This document shows positions 31,097 to 37,807 of a stretch of DNA of 43,792 nt, one piece after another. The position numbers were made by a program, and so were the translations under genes. The notes under the pieces are model-generated. The model did no database searches. It was not told the origin of the DNA and was given only the letters and a program-made list of their open reading frames with translations. Position 1 is the stretch's first letter. Each line of letters begins with the position of its first letter. This DNA comes from a bacterium (GTDB taxonomy: Bacteria; Ratteibacteria; UBA8468), in NCBI GenBank assembly GCA_030630065.1, contig DAOVNU010000001.1:1-43792 (forward strand), given 5' to 3'.

Positions 31097-32146
31097 TTAT
31101 TTAATTTTTAAAACTTCCCAAAGTTTTTCTTCGTCCTTAATTTTTACCTCAATTCTCAAAGCGCAGATCGGTTTTGGAAAACTAATTTCTTTTAGCTTAA
31201 TTAAATCCTTCTCGGTAGTGAGAAGAATGTCAAATTCTTCCCTCAAAATTCTCTTTAAGTCCCTCTTTTTATACCAGTGGTGGTCCGGGAAGAAGGATTT
31301 TCCCTTGATTTTAACTCCTAAACCCTTTACTAAATTTTCGAAGGTTAAAGGATTGCCGATGCCGGCAAGAAGCCAGACCTCTTTTCCAAAAATTGCGGAA
31401 AGTTCAGATATTTTCCCCGAGGAATCTACTAAAGAGACCGGTTGATAAGAACTTTCAATAATATTTGCCCTGGGATTGATTTCTTTGAGGTTTTTTTTGA
31501 AATTAGCCAACTTTTCCTGGTCTGTCAAATTTATATGATTAAGCCAGAAACAATCGGCACGTTTTAAACTGGACAAGGGCTCGCGCAGAAGACCGAGGGG
31601 AAGCAACTTTTTATTAGAAAAGGGAGATGTAGCATCAAGCACAACGATTTCTAAATCCTTTTTTAAATATCGATAATGAAAAGCATCATCCAGAATAATT
31701 GTGTCTGCCTTAAAATTGTTTAAAGCGATTTTAGTCAGTCCTTTCCGGTTTCTTCCGATGAGAACCGGGACTCCGCTTAAATTTTTTGCCAATAAACCTG
31801 CTTCATCCCCGCTTTCTCTTGGCTCCAGTAGAATTTCCCTTTTGTTGGAAACCAGAAAGCCGTTTCCTTTTTTCTTGTAACCCCGGGCAATAACCGCTAT
31901 TTCCTTTTCCTTTTTTAGGAATTGTTTTGCCAAAAAGATTGTAATTGGCGTCTTTCCCGTTCCTCCGGCGGTAATATTCCCGATACTAATTAGAAAGCAA
32001 TTCAATTTTATACTTTTTAAAAGGAATTGGTGGCAAAAAAGGAAATTTCTTATTTCCACTACTAACCAATAGAAAAAGGAAAAAGGAATCAGCAAAGGAA
32101 AAAAAAGAGCAATTTTCTGATTTCTTTTAATCTGAAAGTTTCTCAT
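31097..32146 (-). CDS. lpxK: Tetraacyldisaccharide 4'-kinase
   Basis: 349 aa with an N-terminal hydrophobic anchor and the P-loop ISIGNITAGGTGKTP. It overlaps the upstream gene by 20 nt. Confidence 0.85.
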   Translation of the reverse strand: MRNFQIKRNQKIALFFPLLIPFSFFYWLVVEIRNFLFCHQFLLKSIKLNCFLISIGNITAGGTGKTPITIFLAKQFLKKEKEIAVIARGYKKKGNGFLVSNKREILLEPRESGDEAGLLAKNLSGVPVLIGRNRKGLTKIALNNFKADTIILDDAFHYRYLKKDLEIVVLDATSPFSNKKLLPLGLLREPLSSLKRADCFWLNHINLTDQEKLANFKKNLKEINPRANIIESSYQPVSLVDSSGKISELSAIFGKEVWLLAGIGNPLTFENLVKGLGVKIKGKSFFPDHHWYKKRDLKRILREEFDILLTTEKDLIKLKEISFPKPICALRIEVKIKDEEKLWEVLKIK

Positions 32147-33191
32147 TTCTTTCCTTGAGCAGTTCTCTCAGGAAAATATTCTCAACGTGGTCATCATTGG
32201 GGTCAGCCCTGTCCAGGCCAGAACTTTTGAGTTCAAGGTATAGGTTACCGCCCGGGGTTTTTTTAATACGGTATTGATAAGGACGACCGTAAGGGTCAAG
32301 GAGATTACTGCCTGGTGTCAGGTAGGGACCTTTCCAGTCAGGGATTCCCGGATTAAGGAGTAATGCCTGTAAACCCTGCTTCCTGGAAGGGTAATGTCCG
32401 GTATCAAGATAGAGTTGAATGAGCGCTCCTTTAAGAACCCGGAAATTCTCCTCCGTCTTTCTGATGCCGCGGCGCTTAAGCCCGCTTTCCCTGACTAATT
32501 TGGATGCCTTTTTAGCCATCTCGGCATGACCGTCGGTGATACTACCGATTGGGCCAATATAGGAAAAGGGAATACTGCTTTTCCATCGTTCCCATTCAGC
32601 GGCTTCCCTTAGCTCCAATAATTTGGGAGGAGTAGGTTTTTTGTTAAAGACTACCGTAGTTGCCATTTTTTCTTTAAGGAGAATATAACCCGGTTCCTCT
32701 CCTCTTCCCCGAACTCCTACCTCTCCTTTGAGCACGGCAATACGGGTGCTATTTTCCTTTAAGGCAACCATAAAGATGGTTCCTCTGACCCCGGCGATGG
32801 CGGTAAAGGTCTCCACCTTAAATCTGGATTCGGTTGTTTTTAGTTTTCCCACCACCGACCAGATTTTTCCTTTCTTTACGTCAAGGCAAATCTTTGTTGT
32901 CTCCTCTTTCTGCTGATACTCTTTAATTTCCAGGGAGGTTTTCTCGTTAAGGGTGGTTGCTCCTTCCTGGCCAAAGGTAAGGATTGCCTCGGAATTTTCC
33001 TCTGTGCGGAGCTGGGAGCCCTCCTGCAGTTTTGTGCTTATGGTGGCTGGCTGCCATTCTTCTTTGGGGGTGGTGCGAAATTGCACCTTTCCTTTTAGTT
33101 TACTTAATTCTCCTGCAGGTAACCGGGTCTCGGCTGCATTTAAGATTCCTGTAAAAAGGAAAACTGTCAAGATTATAATAGCTTTCTTCAT
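32127..33191 (-). CDS. Secreted fusion protein: FecR-type domain plus type II secretion GspG-like (pseudopilin globular) C-terminal domain
   Basis: 354 aa with a Sec-type signal peptide (MKKAIIILTVFLFTGILNA). The FecR core is KVETFTAIAGVRGTIFMV...VLKGEVGV. The C-terminus reads LIQLYLDTGHYPSRKQGLQALLLNPGIPDWKGPYLTPGSNLLDPYGRPYQYRI...SSGLDRADPNDD, like the GspG body but without a prepilin leader or methylation motif. Confidence 0.65.
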   Translation of the reverse strand: MKKAIIILTVFLFTGILNAAETRLPAGELSKLKGKVQFRTTPKEEWQPATISTKLQEGSQLRTEENSEAILTFGQEGATTLNEKTSLEIKEYQQKEETTKICLDVKKGKIWSVVGKLKTTESRFKVETFTAIAGVRGTIFMVALKENSTRIAVLKGEVGVRGRGEEPGYILLKEKMATTVVFNKKPTPPKLLELREAAEWERWKSSIPFSYIGPIGSITDGHAEMAKKASKLVRESGLKRRGIRKTEENFRVLKGALIQLYLDTGHYPSRKQGLQALLLNPGIPDWKGPYLTPGSNLLDPYGRPYQYRIKKTPGGNLYLELKSSGLDRADPNDDHVENIFLRELLKERNEKLSD

Positions 33192-33233
33192 CTTCTACAT
33201 AATACTGCATTCAGAGGCAAAATACAATGTCAA

Positions 33234-33262
33234 TTGACAATTTTGATGAATTGGGGTAAAAT
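33234..33262 (+). promoter_or_regulatory. Sigma70-type promoter of the CheY-like receiver gene
   Basis: TTGACA-attttgatgaattgggg-TAAAAT with a 17-nt spacer, followed by a GAGGAG SD and the ATG at 33287. Confidence 0.65.
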
Positions 33263-33286
33263 TATAGCCAAGAAAGAGGAGAAATT

Positions 33287-33694
33287 ATGGGAATACAGAG
33301 AAGGATTTTGGTGGTGGATGACGAGCCGGCGGTAGTAAAAACCTTGAGCAAGGCAATTCGGCGTCAGGGTTTTGATGTCGTCAGTGCCTCCGATGGAGAG
33401 GAGGCATTGGAGAAGGTAAGAAATAGTAATCCCGATTTAGTGATTCTTGATATTCAGATGCCGAAAGTGGATGGGATTGAGGTTCTGCAGAGAATTAAAG
33501 GAAGTCCTGAAACTGCCTCCCTGCCGGTGATTATGCTTACGGCAAAGGTCGGGGACGAAGACATTCTCAAGGGCTATAAATATGGCGCCAATTACTATAT
33601 TCCCAAGCCCTTTAAGATGATTGAGGTTTTGCAGGGAATTGAGATGATGTTTCGATCTATAGATGAAGAGAAATCCCACCGCTTCAAGATTTAA
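33287..33694 (+). CDS. Single-domain response regulator (CheY-like receiver)
   Basis: 135 aa with ILVVDDEPAVV ... DLVILDIQMPKVDG ... VIMLTAK ... YIPKPF. A GAGGAG SD and a consensus promoter lie upstream. This is the only plus-strand gene. Confidence 0.9.
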   Translation: MGIQRRILVVDDEPAVVKTLSKAIRRQGFDVVSASDGEEALEKVRNSNPDLVILDIQMPKVDGIEVLQRIKGSPETASLPVIMLTAKVGDEDILKGYKYGANYYIPKPFKMIEVLQGIEMMFRSIDEEKSHRFKI

Positions 33695-34910
33695 TTATCT
33701 TCTTCAAATAGGGCAAAGTAATGGTGAAGGTTGTTCCCTTTCCTACCTTTGAGGTGACTTTAATCTTTCCCTGATGTTCCTTAATTATTTTTTCCACTAC
33801 CGCTAAACCAATGCCTGTTCCCTTGGAACCTTTGGTACTGTAGAAAAAACTGAAAATCTTCTTAATTTGCTCTTCCGGAATACCACAACCGGTATCGCTA
33901 ACCTTAATCTGGAAGAGTTTCTTCTTCTTTTCCAAATAGGTTATTATCTCTACCTTTCCGCCTTTTCCTCCCAGAGCATCAAGACCATTACCCACCAGGT
34001 TCAATAAAACCCTTTCCATTCCCTGGGGGTCGATTGAGACCTCATTTAAATGGGAGTCAAAATTGGTAATTAATTTTACCTTTTCCTTCTTTGCTCTCTC
34101 TCTCTGGGAGGCAACAATCTGTTTTATAATTTCGTTGAGGTTAGTGAGACGATAGAGAGGTTTACGTTCCTTGGAATAGTTCAGCATATCTAAAACCAGA
34201 TTGGAAACCTTATCCAGATATTCCTCAGTCGTTTCCCAACCGCTAACAAAGGTTTCCCGATCTTTATCTTCTAAACCGATGTGCACCATTTCCTTTCCCA
34301 TCTCAATACCGGTGAGAAGATTCTTGATATAATGGGAAAGACCGGCAACTGTCTGACCCACAGCGGCTAAACGTTCTGCTTTAAGGTTTTCTGCATATAA
34401 CATAGCATTCTCAATCGCTATTGCCGCTTGAGCGGCGATTGTTTCCATTAAGTTGACATCTTCCTGATTGAATGGTCTTTTATCCTTTTTGTTCAATACC
34501 TCCAGGACACCAATTAATTTTCCTTTGCGCAACAGGGGAGCGGCTAAAACCGACCTGGTGATAAAGCCGCTTCTGCTGTCTGCTCCTTGATAGAAATGAG
34601 AATCTTTGGCAACGTTGGAAACGTTGATAATTTGACGCTTTTTGGCGGAGGCACCGGCAATTCCCTGTCCCAGTTTTAACCTTATTTTCTTTATTCCCTT
34701 TCCTTTCTTACCCAAAGCCACCTCAAAGAAAAGTTCCTTGTTTTCCGGGTCATAAAGCATCAAAGAACTGGCTTCCGCGCACAGAGCTTTTTTACTCTCC
34801 TCCATAATCAATTTCAACAAACGGTGCAGATTGCCGATGGAGGCAATAAATTCATTCACTTTATAGAGCGTTTTAATCTGTTTCTTTAACGAATTTAAAT
34901 CCTGTCTCAT
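33684..34910 (-). CDS. GAF-domain sensor histidine kinase (cytoplasmic)
   Basis: 408 aa with an N-terminal GAF domain, the H-box AAVGQTVAGLSHYIKNLL, and HATPase motifs NLVGNGLDA, DTGCGIP and GTGIGLAVV. Confidence 0.85.
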   Translation of the reverse strand: MRQDLNSLKKQIKTLYKVNEFIASIGNLHRLLKLIMEESKKALCAEASSLMLYDPENKELFFEVALGKKGKGIKKIRLKLGQGIAGASAKKRQIINVSNVAKDSHFYQGADSRSGFITRSVLAAPLLRKGKLIGVLEVLNKKDKRPFNQEDVNLMETIAAQAAIAIENAMLYAENLKAERLAAVGQTVAGLSHYIKNLLTGIEMGKEMVHIGLEDKDRETFVSGWETTEEYLDKVSNLVLDMLNYSKERKPLYRLTNLNEIIKQIVASQRERAKKEKVKLITNFDSHLNEVSIDPQGMERVLLNLVGNGLDALGGKGGKVEIITYLEKKKKLFQIKVSDTGCGIPEEQIKKIFSFFYSTKGSKGTGIGLAVVEKIIKEHQGKIKVTSKVGKGTTFTITLPYLKKIIKS

Positions 34911-34913
34911 TTT

Positions 34914-35819
34914 TTATGGGTTAATTATTGGTATCTGTCCAGGGTACCCATTGATTTTTCCGGGTTGATAAGGGACAGAAGGAAGTTCAGGAGATTGCCA
35001 TCTCCCCGGCTGAACCCCTCCTTTCCATCCTAATGTCTTTATCCTTTTCTTGATTTCTTGCTGTTGCCTGAGAGGTAAAGTTCTATATTTGTCAATTTCC
35101 TCTCGCAGTTTTTCTCTTTTAAAAGGACTCAAACCCTGCCACCATTCCTTTGTTTGTTTTCTCCTTGCCTCTAAATAAATAAATCTTTCTTTCCAGATAG
35201 TCGTACTTTTTGATAATCCATATGGGATTTGGGGAATCCGGTAAGGAAGGACAGAGGTTTCATAATTACTGGGAACCAAAAATTCTTTGGTCACGGTACC
35301 TTCCCGGGTAATTCCTCTTACTTCTACCTTTCCTTTGAAGACGGCAATTAGGGTCTTTTCGTCTTTTATCTCTACCATAAATCCTGTTCCCCGCGCCCCA
35401 GCCACCGCTGTGGGAGTGCGGATTTCAAACTTAGAAAGCGGAAAGGGAATGGTCTCAATCTCAGCCAAAACCCTTCCCATTTCTAATTTTAGCGCCGATT
35501 CCTTAGAATTATCTTCTCTAATTTTTATTTTCTGAATCTTCAGGAGAGAATCTTCCGAAAGTTCCACAATATTCTCATAATCAAATGTTATCTCAGCGGA
35601 GGAATCCTCCTTCGTCTGGACCTTGTCCCCTTCAAAGAGAAATAACCCCTCTTTTGCTGCTTGCCAGGTTGTCTGCTCCTTTTCCTGAATCAGCACCTCT
35701 CCCTGAAATGCAGAAAGGACGGCAATCTGCTCTTTCTCACTTTGGACTTCCTCCGGACATGCTGAACCTGTCAGAAAGAGTATAAGGAGAAACGCTAAAC
35801 CTTCTGTTTTAACCTTCAC
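34914..35819 (-). CDS. Secreted FecR-domain protein
   Basis: 301 aa with a signal peptide and the FecR core IRTPTAVAGARGTGFMV...VFKGKVEV. The C-terminal tail is basic and proline-rich. Confidence 0.7.
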   Translation of the reverse strand: MKVKTEGLAFLLILFLTGSACPEEVQSEKEQIAVLSAFQGEVLIQEKEQTTWQAAKEGLFLFEGDKVQTKEDSSAEITFDYENIVELSEDSLLKIQKIKIREDNSKESALKLEMGRVLAEIETIPFPLSKFEIRTPTAVAGARGTGFMVEIKDEKTLIAVFKGKVEVRGITREGTVTKEFLVPSNYETSVLPYRIPQIPYGLSKSTTIWKERFIYLEARRKQTKEWWQGLSPFKREKLREEIDKYRTLPLRQQQEIKKRIKTLGWKGGVQPGRWQSPELPSVPYQPGKINGYPGQIPIINP

Positions 35820-37807
35820 AACAATCTATTGATTTTATAAACAGCAATGGGATTTTTCTTTCCCCGAACAGTTATTGGTTCCATCTTCCGGCAGTCCACT
35901 AAATTCTTCACTAAGGAATAAGTATTTCCACTAATGATAATCTCTCCTTCAGCCGCAATCTCCTCCAGACGCGCCGTTAAGTTCACCGCATCGCCGATGG
36001 CGGTATAGTCCATCCGCTCGGGTGAGCCGATGTTGCCGATGATTACCTCCCCGGTATTAATGGCAATTCCCGCCTCAATTTTTCTACCAATTAATGCAAG
36101 CCATTTCTGCTCAATCTTTTTGATTTCCTGCTGGATTTCAACTGCGGTGCGAACCGCTGCCTCCGCATGGTTAGGTTGCGGAAGCGGAGCGCCAAAGACC
36201 GCCATCACACAGTCCCCGATGAATTTATCCAGAGTTCCCCGATATTTGAAGATTGCTTTTACCATTATGGTTAATGCCTCATTAAGAATCTCCACGACCT
36301 TCTCCGGCTCTAAATTTTCAGAGATTTTAGTGAACCCCCGGATATCGGCAAAGAGAATGGTTAATTCCTTCTTCTCACCCCCTAAGGTAACCTCTCCGGG
36401 TGAGGTTAACAATTTATTAATAATTTCCGGAGCGGTATAACGAGAGAAGAGCGATTTAATCCGCATCTTTTCTCTACTTTCAAAGACAAAACGATAGAGA
36501 ATAGTTGCAAGGTATGCCAGGAAAATCACCAGAAGCGGAGCGACGAGAGCAATCCAGATTCCCGGGGATTTAAATAACCAAAAAGCAAGGAAGAAGTAGA
36601 CAAGAGCAATCCCCAGAGTTAATAATATTCCCTTGAAAGCATTTAGCCGGGGGATAATTGTACCCAGCAGAAGCCCTAGGAAAATAAGAACCAGAAAATT
36701 AATTGGTCTTTTTACCTGTCGCAGAAAATTTCCTTTAAGGATATTGCTGACTACACTGGCGTGCACCCCGACCATTGGATATTTTGCAGAAACAGGAGTG
36801 GGCCGCAAATCTACCGTTCCGGTAGCTACGTATCCAATTAGAACTACCTTACCTTTTAACTCCGAAAGGGGAACAATCGGTTTTTCTCCTTTTTTGAGTT
36901 GAAGATAGGACTGGAGAACCTGAACAAAGGAATATGCCGGGAATTCCTGGATGTCTCCCGGGAAGTTGATGAGCATACAACCCTTTTTGTCAATGGGTAT
37001 TTTAATTTTGTTGGGTAGAATCACCTCTTTACCGGGAAGAACCTTAAGCGATTTCAGGGGAACATTAAGCTCTTCGCAGGCGAGCACAAGACCCAGAGTT
37101 GGATAAAGCCGTTCACTTGACCTGATAAAGAGAGGAATTCTTCTGCTGGTTCCATCGCTATCAGGTGGAAGGTTAATCATTCCCAGCCCTTTTGCGGCAT
37201 AAGCGAGATTTTCAATTGGCAGGGAGGCGGATGAAGAATGGTAGAATTGACCACTCCCGGCAGGGGCAGGAAGAGAAAATCTTTTTAATCTTTTTTCGGA
37301 GAGAAATTTTCCTTCTTCTCCGGGAAGTTTGAATTGAGAGAGTTCAAAGAAGAAGGTATGATAAACGTTGCCGGCATTTTTTGTTGTTTGGACCAGAAAA
37401 TTATCACATTCCGGATGCTCCGAGGGGTCCAAAAAGAGAATGTCAAAACCAATGGCTTTAACTCCCCTCTCTTTAAGAATTTGAATCAACGTTGCATAAT
37501 AATCCCTGGTCCAGGGCCAACAGCCGATAGCTTTGATATCCCTGTCTTCAATAAAGATAATGGCAATTTCCGGGCTGGGTTTGCGGGGACCACGAAGTTT
37601 AAAACGAAGGTCAAGAGTGGTTAATTCGGACTTTTCCAGAAGAGGAGTGAGAGAGACAAGAATTACGAAAAGAGCAGCAAAAAATCCAATCCAGATTCCA
37701 GTTAATCGCGGTTGGTTCTTCTTTCGGAAGATTTTAAGGGGTTTCATCCAATTCTTCCACAATTCGGTTGCGAACTTTACCCAAAACCTCTTTTGTTGCG
37801 ATATCAA
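35816..37807 (-). CDS. CHASE2-domain membrane receptor adenylate/guanylate cyclase (class III)
   Basis: 663 aa with an N-terminal TM segment, a periplasmic CHASE2 region, three to four TM segments and a cyclase domain (LTILFADIRGFTKISE ... KFIGDCVMAVFGAP ... IGDAVNLTARLE). The true start may be the internal ATG at 37747 (MKPLKIF...), which reduces the overlap with the upstream gene to 14 nt. Confidence 0.85.
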   Translation of the reverse strand: MISQQKRFWVKFATELWKNWMKPLKIFRKKNQPRLTGIWIGFFAALFVILVSLTPLLEKSELTTLDLRFKLRGPRKPSPEIAIIFIEDRDIKAIGCWPWTRDYYATLIQILKERGVKAIGFDILFLDPSEHPECDNFLVQTTKNAGNVYHTFFFELSQFKLPGEEGKFLSEKRLKRFSLPAPAGSGQFYHSSSASLPIENLAYAAKGLGMINLPPDSDGTSRRIPLFIRSSERLYPTLGLVLACEELNVPLKSLKVLPGKEVILPNKIKIPIDKKGCMLINFPGDIQEFPAYSFVQVLQSYLQLKKGEKPIVPLSELKGKVVLIGYVATGTVDLRPTPVSAKYPMVGVHASVVSNILKGNFLRQVKRPINFLVLIFLGLLLGTIIPRLNAFKGILLTLGIALVYFFLAFWLFKSPGIWIALVAPLLVIFLAYLATILYRFVFESREKMRIKSLFSRYTAPEIINKLLTSPGEVTLGGEKKELTILFADIRGFTKISENLEPEKVVEILNEALTIMVKAIFKYRGTLDKFIGDCVMAVFGAPLPQPNHAEAAVRTAVEIQQEIKKIEQKWLALIGRKIEAGIAINTGEVIIGNIGSPERMDYTAIGDAVNLTARLEEIAAEGEIIISGNTYSLVKNLVDCRKMEPITVRGKKNPIAVYKINRLL

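Follow-up and report, generated by a model that had tools for sequence, protein, structure and literature searches.

The gene followed here encodes a real and conserved secreted protein that joins a FecR domain to the head of a GspG-type pseudopilin. Its conserved and informative neighbour is a gene for a CHASE2 sensor, not lpxK, the gene that it overlaps in the 43,792-nucleotide stretch of DNA analysed (the window). From the domain content and the neighbourhood we consider it fairly probable that the protein, FecR-T2SSG, works together with the CHASE2 cyclase as its periplasmic co-sensor or modulator, and that its pseudopilin head is an accessory module brought in by exchange. The gene and its parts are given below with the evidence in brackets.

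32127-33191, minus strand: gene for the FecR plus leaderless GspG-like secreted protein, 354 aa (open reading frame with Pfam FecR and T2SSG, conserved family, AF2)
33132-33191, minus strand: Sec-type signal peptide, residues 1 to ~20, without a lipobox cysteine (sequence reading)
32649-33113, minus strand: beta-sandwich domain with the FecR core, residues 27-181 (Pfam, AF2, Foldseek)
32535-32648, minus strand: family-specific linker, residues 182-219 (invariant residues, hhalign register)
32172-32534, minus strand: GspG-type pseudopilin module, helix 220-264 and beta-sheet head to residue 340 (Pfam, profile, hhalign, Foldseek)

A secreted FecR protein with a soluble pseudopilin head

The N-terminus of the product reads MKKAIIILTVFLFTGILNAAE, and a hydrophobic stretch is found at this end in 29/30 relatives. 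The Sec signal and FecR core described in the initial annotation were both borne out, the Pfam FecR model (PF04773) matching residues 60-158 at 51.6 bits, above its cut-off of 24 (E 1e-13). The AF2 model of the whole protein has a pLDDT of 84, and its FecR region consists of strands only (pLDDT ~90), for which Foldseek returns the periplasmic domains of FecR-type anti-sigma proteins (BDI_1681, 4m0h/4m0n; PupR, 6ovk) with E-values between 1e-7 and 1e-6. This periplasmic beta-domain is what the protein has in common with the FecR/PupR anti-sigma regulators, but in FecR-T2SSG it starts at residue 27 and comes without the cytoplasmic anti-sigma domain and the TM helix. With the FecR equivalog NF007296 it reaches 13.2 bits where 385 are required, and no ECF sigma factor or TonB-dependent transducer adjoins the gene in the window or in the relatives examined. 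One relative (L088) has sigma70_r2/r4_2 and zf-HC2 genes ~3 kb downstream, non-adjacent and without a TonB-dependent transducer.

The linker holds a PPxPP stretch, an EWExWK helix (194-204) and an 'IPFS' motif, and N183, P186, E196, E199, W200 and G216 are invariant in this region of the family alignment. It leads into an alpha1-like helix of 45 non-hydrophobic residues (220-264) and then into the head.

Several profile methods agree that this C-terminal part is the body of a GspG, as had been claimed. The Pfam T2SSG model (PF08334) matches residues 244-335 at 55.9 bits, above its cut-off of 21 (E 5e-15), a profile search of the PDB finds EpsG 3gn9 at E 6.7e-7, and hhalign against 11 canonical GspG proteins from relatives gives a probability of 98.5% and E 2.7e-15. 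The NCBIfam GspG model TIGR01710 scores 46.1 bits, which is below the full-length equivalog cut-off of 88.85, and its match spans model positions 34-126 only, that is, without the N-terminal helix; the genome's own canonical GspG reaches 158 bits with the same model. When the domain model was compared by Foldseek, the top 11 matches were all GspG, EpsG or PulG (among them 1t92, 3fu1, 4lw9, 3g20 and 3gn9), with probability 1.00, TM 0.60-0.71 and rmsd 3.1-4.2 A. The head also keeps the GspG core motifs DTxxxP, WxGPY, DPYG and PYxY, and from pseudopilin residue P22 onward it runs in a common register with its canonical counterparts.

What it does not share with GspG, PulG and EpsG is the means of entering a membrane or a filament. 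It has no prepilin leader, N-methylation site, conserved Glu5 or hydrophobic alpha1N; instead its export relies on the Sec signal at the start of the chain, and the head is fused behind FecR. None of the Pfam and NCBIfam prepilin/N-methyl models matches the protein, and past the signal peptide 0/30 family members have a hydrophobic helix, taken as a 19-residue Kyte-Doolittle mean of at least 1.6. This agrees with the initial annotation, which had noted the lack of a prepilin cleavage and methylation helix. The genes around it differ as well, for canonical GspG belongs to a gsp operon and FecR-T2SSG lies beside lpxK, a receiver, a GAF kinase and a CHASE2 cyclase, with signalling genes likewise around its relatives. 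The sequence profiles and the predicted fold thus support the earlier reading, that a secreted FecR protein has recruited a pseudopilin fold as a module that is soluble and has no leader. T2SSG modules without a leader also turn up outside this family, in unrelated tandem arrays and as parts of giant proteins with Kelch repeats.

A trace of the missing helix could still be present. In the hhalign register pseudopilin P22 corresponds to residue 230, so that F209, in the conserved 'IPFS', would stand in the place of the mature F1. The segment equivalent to alpha1N (209-229) is polar or amphipathic, and compared with a prepilin site the internal 'IPFS(E/Y)IG' misses the Gly at -1 and the Glu at 5. 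Scored in this fixed register against canonical alpha1N, the segment ranks 4th of 303 windows (z = 2.4, column-permutation p = 0.017), with registers 207 and 204 among those that score higher. This is suggestive of a fossil alpha1N at IPFS and does not establish one. The GspG calcium site was considered as a family feature and rejected. On reading the alignment, the acidic residues that reportedly form the calcium loop in the EpsG structure (Korotkov 2009) are replaced by I, V or A in most members, and they are retained in the subclade of the window and in the clade with proteins P0019 and P0040.

An open reading frame with two such different parts could be an artefact of assembly or annotation, in which a frameshift has joined a FecR gene to a gspG fragment, but we give this practically no credence. 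At least 50 protein clusters (at 90% identity) have the FecR-T2SSG architecture, mostly from Omnitrophota MAGs. Independent assemblies contribute to the 48 database clusters, of 342-437 aa, which have the same single-ORF architecture and length, and in them both domains fall in one continuous alignment with a conserved linker. In a set of 65 genomes from the phylum the protein is encoded in a single open frame in 23, one copy each. The frameshift fusion is refuted by these counts. The initial annotation did not recognise the architecture, and this stands in so far as a literature search for FecR with T2SSG or pseudopilin-like periplasmic domains found nothing relevant. As far as that search shows the architecture is apparently unpublished, though it recurs in databases, where it is automatically annotated as 'FecR domain-containing protein'.

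Gene neighbourhood and the link to CHASE2

The genes around FecR-T2SSG in the window are as follows.

31097-32146, minus strand: lpxK, lipid A 4'-kinase (Pfam LpxK, 263.8 bits)
33287-33694, plus strand: stand-alone CheY-like receiver (Pfam Response_reg, 113.9 bits)
33684-34910, minus strand: cytoplasmic GAF histidine kinase (Pfam GAF and HATPase_c)
34914-35819, minus strand: FecR2, a second secreted FecR-domain protein, 301 aa (Pfam; without T2SSG)
35816-37807, minus strand: CHASE2 class III nucleotide cyclase (Pfam CHASE2, 196.6 bits; Guanylate_cyc, 101.5 bits)

The receiver gene diverges from FecR-T2SSG and converges on the kinase gene, and a consensus promoter scan of the 95-nt divergent spacer returned a plus-strand promoter for the receiver only and none for FecR-T2SSG. 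The FecR2 gene directly follows the cyclase, and its product has a weak, sub-threshold DUF3106 match in the tail. Together FecR2, the kinase and the opposite-strand receiver split FecR-T2SSG from the cyclase operon. The 88%-identical relative L081 has no FecR2, and there the cyclase abuts the kinase directly.

As the initial annotation reported, the stop codon of FecR-T2SSG (32127-32129) lies 20 nt inside lpxK, and L081 has an overlap of 4 nt. Taken with the nearby CHASE2 and FecR genes, this had been read as a hint of envelope sensing, and a sensor of the outer membrane or LPS whose translation is coupled to lpxK for a functional reason would explain both overlaps. We consider such a role very unlikely. 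The adjacency occurs only in the window and L081; lpxK adjoins the gene in 0/23 related loci, and in none of six further contexts (L086, L088, L089, L090, L125 and L126). In G001, a genome of the same family, lpxK directly follows the CHASE2 cyclase with a gap of 1 nt and no FecR gene, so the place of the cyclase next to lpxK accounts for the adjacency. The genome is also small and tightly packed, and overlaps between unrelated genes are common in it. There is thus probably no functional tie to lpxK, the overlap being a by-product of the position of the module in this genus, and we rejected the coupling as a functional clue.

The other half of that hint, the CHASE2/FecR neighbours, is conserved. 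In 17 of the 23 carrier genomes of the 65-genome set the next gene upstream, on the same strand of the same contig, encodes a CHASE2 protein, and a CHASE2 cyclase has this place in most of the 23 related loci as well; among the remaining carriers, the window's own genome has CHASE2 within 4 kb, and the other five (four at contig edges and one fragment) are unscorable. The conserved order, all on one strand, is GAF histidine kinase, CHASE2 cyclase, FecR-T2SSG, and in many cases the stop codon of one gene overlaps the start codon of the next. Homologues of the kinase, 46-52% identical, are encoded two genes ahead of FecR-T2SSG in 15/23 related loci. Usually there is also a stand-alone receiver gene near the module, as in L081, L086, L088, L089, L005 and L013, and also, with sub-threshold Pfam scores, in L004 and L017.

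More distant members keep a CHASE2 neighbour of another kind. Those in L022 and L125 are paired with a CHASE2 Ser/Thr kinase, and a distant member of 593 aa adjoins a CHASE2 cyclase of 728 aa. Since the pairing outlasts a change of output domain, it points to the CHASE2 domain itself as the likely partner. The association extends to other FecR proteins, for 34 of the 43 other FecR-domain matches in the phylum are within 5 kb of a CHASE2 match, and other CHASE2-linked FecR partners there bear LysM and Ig/fn3 domains or a prepilin N-terminus. The linkage also has exceptions. In G001 the orthologous cyclase (78% identity) is kept without FecR-T2SSG, so we read the FecR partner as dispensable or lost in that genome. 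A truncated copy of 215 aa (L023) has no CHASE2 neighbour. Finally, five proteins form a co-aligning clade, one of them with an NCBI record named Verrucomicrobiae, and in the two of these whose surroundings were examined (P0019 and P0040) the gene neighbours a methyltransferase gene (Methyltransf_4, PF02390) and no CHASE2 gene is found up to 8 kb away.

These orphan copies would fit a stand-alone surface or periplasmic protein of the adhesin-like Lsa33/LipL45 type with no part in signalling, and NCBIfam does give weak matches of the FecR part to two Leptospira proteins, Lsa33 and LipL45, each at 48 bits and thus far under the cut-offs of 420 and 350. However, those matches are confined to the common FecR domain, and a strong CHASE2 linkage that is independent of the output would not be expected of an adhesin. 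We regard this as unlikely and continue to favour a CHASE2 partner.

Pilin parts beside CHASE2 genes

A second, independent family in the phylum also brings pilin parts and FecR together beside CHASE2. These proteins start with a genuine prepilin leader and alpha1 helix and end in FecR, and their genes are directly upstream of CHASE2-HD-GYP genes in 19/19 cases; we found no description of them in the literature searched. They are like FecR-T2SSG in that a pseudopilin part and FecR are combined next to a CHASE2 second-messenger enzyme, but the topology is the opposite, with an N-terminal (K/R)G|F(S/T)LIE leader, hydrophobic helix and DUF1559-like start, followed by a C-terminal FecR. The enzyme differs as well, being a CHASE2-HD-GYP phosphodiesterase where FecR-T2SSG has a CHASE2 cyclase.

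This recurrence brings up another explanation, that the GspG-like head docks on a T2SS- or T4P-like pseudopilus or its platform and that FecR and CHASE2 report the state of the machine in the form of a second messenger. The retained GspG core motifs would be consistent with docking, as would the presence of a canonical GspG and many pseudopilins in 31/31 genomes (its own and 30 relatives), and in L086 there are T2SSC, LysM and secretin-STN genes 4-8 kb away. On the other hand, a head without the hydrophobic alpha1N cannot enter the core of a filament, and no T2SS or pilus gene recurs as a neighbour across the relatives; a secretin/T2SS neighbourhood was rejected as a clue, being found only in L086 among the relatives. 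Pilin-like genes are moreover so abundant (a first look gives as many as 89 candidates in one genome) that fusions are possible without functional coupling, and the tandem arrays and Kelch-repeat proteins mentioned above have such leaderless modules too. We therefore see docking as improbable, though it is the alternative to which we give the most weight. At a similarly low probability, the two pilin-FecR families could form one system in which the state of a pseudopilus or pilus, or its pool of subunits, is passed on to cAMP and c-di-GMP. If true, this would be the first defined input for the orphan CHASE2 domain.

A possible periplasmic partner for CHASE2 sensors

The pairing of FecR with CHASE2 is already known, and the version with a pseudopilin head is the new addition. 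A LysM-FecR protein accompanies a CHASE2 kinase in the Burkholderia 'BiofilmReg' operon (PMC5192318), a CHASE2 cyclase occurs with a FecR protein in a Campylobacterota cluster (PMC9239204), and MtxA of magnetotactic bacteria is followed by a CHASE2 cyclase (PMC4439547). FecR-T2SSG resembles the LysM+FecR proteins (COG4254; PA4035-type), the Campylobacterota FecR protein and MtxA in having a signal peptide and FecR with no anti-sigma part, and it resembles the Burkholderia, Campylobacterota and MtxA partners in that its gene has a CHASE2 receptor gene as its direct neighbour, along with two-component or cNMP partners. Versions with LysM, FecR and Ig/fn3 are also present in this phylum. Compared with these, a GspG-type head on a long soluble helix replaces LysM, TPR or Ig, and Pfam finds no LysM domain in FecR-T2SSG, with T2SSG there instead. 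The order of genes differs too, as FecR-T2SSG is usually downstream of the CHASE2 gene and not upstream as in the known cases.

Under the partnership that we favour, Sec would export FecR-T2SSG, which would remain in the periplasm as the dedicated extracytoplasmic partner of the neighbouring CHASE2 cyclase. The FecR beta-domain could be the constant adaptor common to all CHASE2-linked partner proteins, presumably in physical contact with CHASE2. The pseudopilin head on its long soluble helix may be a lineage-specific accessory for binding or positioning, occupying the slot that other CHASE2 partners fill with LysM, Ig/fn3, TPR or a true pilin anchor. A periplasmic cue would then act through FecR-T2SSG and CHASE2 on the synthesis of cNMP, which the soluble histidine kinase may sense through its GAF domain and relay to the stand-alone receiver. 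We know of no demonstrated mechanism for any of the named CHASE2-linked FecR partners.

CHASE2 was described in 2003 as a widespread sensor domain, and to our knowledge its ligand and mechanism have not become known since. The best way to approach it is through the FecR-domain proteins that are encoded beside it again and again. FecR-T2SSG is a compact, well-folding putative partner whose second module can be recognised, and it accompanies CHASE2 sensors with three different outputs, so that the partner hypothesis is directly testable. For pilin evolution it is of interest that a GspG head is able to exist as a soluble domain outside any filament. Together with the prepilin-leader family, FecR-T2SSG raises the possibility of cross-talk between pseudopili and second messengers in the small-genome Omnitrophota.

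Domains and predicted fold of FecR-T2SSG

Our analysis identifies FecR-T2SSG as a new form of CHASE2-associated secreted FecR protein, a probable partner that carries a borrowed pseudopilin head. Every element that the initial annotation had listed for the gene was present: a signal peptide, a FecR domain, a GspG-type C-terminus, the lack of a pilin helix and a 20-nt overlap with lpxK.

32127..33191, minus strand: FecR-T2SSG gene, an open reading frame of 354 aa with the start MKKAIIILTVFLFTGILNAAE
Residues 60-158 of FecR-T2SSG: FecR domain (Pfam, 51.6 bits, E 1.3e-13)
Residues 244-335 of FecR-T2SSG: T2SSG domain, the GspG globular head (Pfam, 55.9 bits, E 5.1e-15)
31097..32146: lpxK (Pfam LpxK, 263.8 bits)

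The start of the protein is a typical Sec signal that has no lipobox cysteine, and both Pfam domains exceed their own gathering scores. The NCBIfam GspG equivalog (cut-off 88.85) gives 46 bits and matches over model positions 34-126 only, which shows that the protein lacks the N-terminal pilin helix. The final 20 nt of the gene lie inside lpxK. Upstream on the same strand are genes for a GAF histidine kinase, a second secreted FecR protein (FecR2) and a CHASE2 class III cyclase, and the kinase and FecR-T2SSG genes are separated by a stand-alone receiver gene of plus-strand orientation. The 95-nt divergent spacer at 33192-33286 holds a near-consensus plus-strand promoter for the receiver (TTGACA-17-TAAAAT at 33234-33262); a consensus scan of the same spacer gave no minus-strand promoter for the FecR-T2SSG/lpxK pair.

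An AlphaFold2 model built on a 30-sequence alignment had a mean pLDDT of 84 and the following parts:

Residues 27-181: all-beta domain
Residues 194-204: short helix
Residues 213-223: low-confidence stretch
Residues 220-264: 45-residue helix
Residues 306-340: three-stranded sheet
Residues 341-353: terminal helix

When compared with the PDB by Foldseek, the N-terminal domain resembles the FecR-type periplasmic signalling domains of BDI_1681 (4m0h/4m0n) and PupR (6ovk), with E-values of 2e-7 to 1e-6, and the C-terminal part of the full model resembles GspG-class pseudopilins. In sequence, the FecR part is weakly similar to LipL45/Lsa33, which lends something to the idea of an adhesin-like protein acting on its own, a reading that we regard as quite improbable. 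Modelled separately (pLDDT 79), residues 185-354 found their sole confident Foldseek matches in 11 chains of EpsG, PulG and EHEC GspG, at probability 1.00, TM 0.60-0.71, rmsd 3.1-4.2 Å and 22-26% identity. The family profile matches EpsG 3gn9 (E 6.7e-7), and profile-profile comparison with 11 canonical GspG proteins of related genomes gave a probability of 98.5% and an E-value of 2.7e-15. The GspG core motifs D263-T-x-x-x-P268, W286-x-G-P-Y290, D299-P-Y-G302 and Y305 are invariant in the family. The C-terminal part is GspG-like both by HMM search and by predicted structure, which bears out the view that a pseudopilin fold serves here as a soluble module on a FecR protein.

Past the signal peptide, none of the 30 members examined reaches a Kyte-Doolittle mean of 1.6 over any 19 residues. 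The hhalign alignment begins at residue 230, which corresponds to pseudopilin residue P22, and extrapolating back from there places the mature F1 on F209, within the motif 'S-I-P-F-S-E-I-G', which is conserved (25 of the 30 members have F here). In a fixed-register test F209 ranked 4 of 303 windows (permutation p = 0.017), with two nearby registers scoring higher. The extrapolated position of F1 is consistent with a history in which a complete pseudopilin gene was joined to the end of a FecR gene and its alpha1N, the hydrophobic N-terminal helix, later became less hydrophobic, an idea for which the fixed-register result is no more than suggestive. Two family assignments were considered and rejected. 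The leader, alpha1N, equivalog score and operon context are not those of a GspG family member, and a FecR anti-sigma factor does not fit a protein that has no anti-sigma domain or TM helix and comes with no sigma factor or transducer.

Conservation of the architecture

When 5.8 billion proteins were searched by word index, 54 clusters were obtained, 48 of which are 342-437 aa long and have both Pfam domains. MAG records of Candidatus Omnitrophica/Omnitrophota label several of them 'FecR domain-containing protein', and one truncated copy is labelled GspG. Thirty members, with 34-87% identity to the window protein, can be aligned end to end; this alignment has 35 invariant columns, including the family-specific linker residues N183, P186, E196, E199, W200 and G216. 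We also ran an exhaustive profile search with the C-terminal half against 1.84 billion 50%-identity representatives, in which 11 clusters reached E <= 1e-30. About 26 of the top 150 clusters, with lengths of 350-700 aa, have a C-terminal end that matches the complete linker-plus-head profile, and all seven sampled from these have FecR (six also reach the T2SSG threshold).

With 48 two-domain clusters and 30 members alignable throughout, two genes joined by a sequencing frameshift can be rejected, and an assembly or annotation artefact of any kind is exceedingly unlikely. FecR-T2SSG is a real conserved protein, and the fusion, when counted, is found in these 48 clusters and in 23 of 65 phylum genomes.

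Leaderless T2SSG domains are also found elsewhere: a 484-aa protein has five in tandem, and Kelch-repeat proteins of 1,805 and 1,977 aa contain two to four (database proteins P0060, P0070 and P0088). Metagenomic proteins therefore reuse the soluble GspG head as a building block.

Linkage to CHASE2

Our 80 loci from species-representative genomes include 23 with the full architecture, which were searched by tblastn with the proteins that neighbour FecR-T2SSG in the window. The order GAF kinase, CHASE2 cyclase, FecR-T2SSG on one strand was found in 15 of the 23, two further contigs end inside the cyclase, and 4-nt overlaps of gene ends are frequent. Among the 65 phylum genomes, 23 have exactly one FecR-T2SSG copy each.

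Position of CHASE2 relative to FecR-T2SSG in 23 genomes
CHASE2 immediately upstream, same contig and strand: 17/23
CHASE2 gene within 4 kb: 1/23 (the window's own)
FecR-T2SSG copy at a contig edge: 4/23
FecR-T2SSG copy a fragment: 1/23

The small opposite-strand receiver gene adjoins the trio in the window and in loci L081, L086, L088 and L089, and is found in L005 and L013 and, with sub-threshold scores, in L004 and L017. FecR-T2SSG of L022 and the distant member P0074 each have a CHASE2 Ser/Thr kinase as neighbour, and a 728-aa CHASE2 cyclase lies beside the 593-aa member P0087. As the pairing is independent of the output domain, it points to the CHASE2 domain as the likely partner of FecR-T2SSG. 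Exceptions are two members of one clade (P0019 and P0040; one NCBI record is named Verrucomicrobiae), whose genes lie beside a Methyltransf_4 methyltransferase gene and have no CHASE2 within 8 kb; a truncated 215-aa copy has no CHASE2 neighbour.

An SH3b and NlpC/P60 cell-wall hydrolase gene follows FecR-T2SSG in three related loci (L006:7058-8479, L007:7437-8792, L008:6094-7461), and L006 and L008 have a gene for a LexA-like repressor upstream of the kinase gene and in the opposite orientation to it. L086 is the one locus with T2SSC-like, LysM and STN-containing secretin genes (L086:1-2596), at a distance of 4-8 kb upstream from its receiver-kinase-cyclase-FecR-T2SSG module.

Pairing of FecR with CHASE2 is the rule in this phylum, with accessory parts that vary: 34 of the 43 other FecR-domain matches in the 65 phylum genomes are at most 5 kb from a CHASE2 match. 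The pairing is already known from a Burkholderia 'BiofilmReg' operon with LysM-FecR and a CHASE2 kinase (PMC5192318), from Campylobacterota, where a CHASE2 cyclase occurs with a FecR-domain protein, a phosphodiesterase and a TPR protein (PMC9239204), and from magnetotactic bacteria, where MtxA is followed by a CHASE2 cyclase (PMC4439547). The FecR-T2SSG architecture is unremarked in databases, and our literature search found no mention of the fusion.

The CHASE2-linked forms in this phylum include plain FecR proteins of about 276 aa and LysM+FecR+Ig/fn3 proteins of 641-643 aa, an enlarged version of the Burkholderia-type LysM-FecR partner, whose genes immediately precede those for CHASE2 proteins of about 655-675 aa (L127:1754-3679, L130:1517-3448). 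A third form is a prepilin-FecR family of 300-320 aa. All 19 cases examined (loci L128 and L131-L148; genomes G005, G015, G017, G019, G022, G023, G028, G031, G035-G037, G047, G049, G050, G052, G053, G057, G058 and G063), which are 295-318 aa long, have a prepilin signal (K/R)G|F(S/T)LIE and hydrophobic alpha1N helix, then a DUF1559-like C-x-N-N-x-x-x-I-x-x-A-I-E-x-(Y/F)-Q segment, with FecR at the C-terminal end, and each lies directly beside a CHASE2 protein of about 760 aa. In two fully read loci (L149:2887-6628, L150:2432-6259) a CHASE2 and HD_5 (HD-GYP type) protein is encoded directly downstream, and a 171-188-aa two-TM ORF with the motif 'SHR(I/V)AGP(V/A)YRI' lies upstream. This independent family raises the chance that FecR-T2SSG senses through coupling to a pseudopilus. 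However, alpha1N is missing, T2SS synteny is not conserved and pilin genes are abundant in these genomes, so we consider such coupling unlikely.

The lpxK overlap and the proposed role

The coupling to lpxK had been taken as a hint of envelope sensing, and this part of the earlier reading did not hold. By tblastn, lpxK is absent from the 23 full-architecture loci; it lies downstream of FecR-T2SSG only in the window and in its 88%-identical metagenomic relative L081, where the two genes share 4 nt instead of 20 nt. The genome G001 comes from a different genus within the window's family. Its orthologous cyclase (78% identity) has lpxK 1 nt downstream and then a family-9 heptosyltransferase (L121, G001:C121, 98-4017), with no kinase, receiver or FecR gene between cyclase and lpxK. 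The cyclase-lpxK adjacency therefore belongs to this family, and the kinase-receiver-FecR-T2SSG block stands between the two only in the window's genus. The 20-nt overlap thus carries no particular message about lipid A, and with the adjacency explained by the position of the cyclase we give envelope sensing through lpxK very little credence.

FecR2 (301 aa, 34914-35819) lies between the cyclase and kinase genes in the window and is absent from the 88-90%-identical L081 (1773-1800), where these two genes overlap directly; the close relatives differ here by a clean insertion or deletion the size of a gene. Three facts temper the role proposed below: in the window FecR2, which L081 does not have, directly follows the cyclase; FecR-T2SSG is there in its own divergent unit with lpxK; and G001 keeps the cyclase without any such partner.

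On balance we favor FecR-T2SSG being a periplasmic partner in a CHASE2 cyclase pathway, and hold the details with less confidence. The mature protein would be periplasmic. The C-terminal domains of FecR and PupR bind the signalling domain of their transducers, and by analogy the FecR beta-domain may be an adaptor that acts in contact with CHASE2 in the periplasm. Carried on a long soluble helix, the pseudopilin head could be an accessory module for binding or positioning. The soluble kinase would then respond to the cyclase output through its GAF domain, presumably by cNMP sensing, and would phosphorylate the stand-alone receiver. The head module and the parallel prepilin-FecR family together offer a concrete and testable angle on CHASE2 input.
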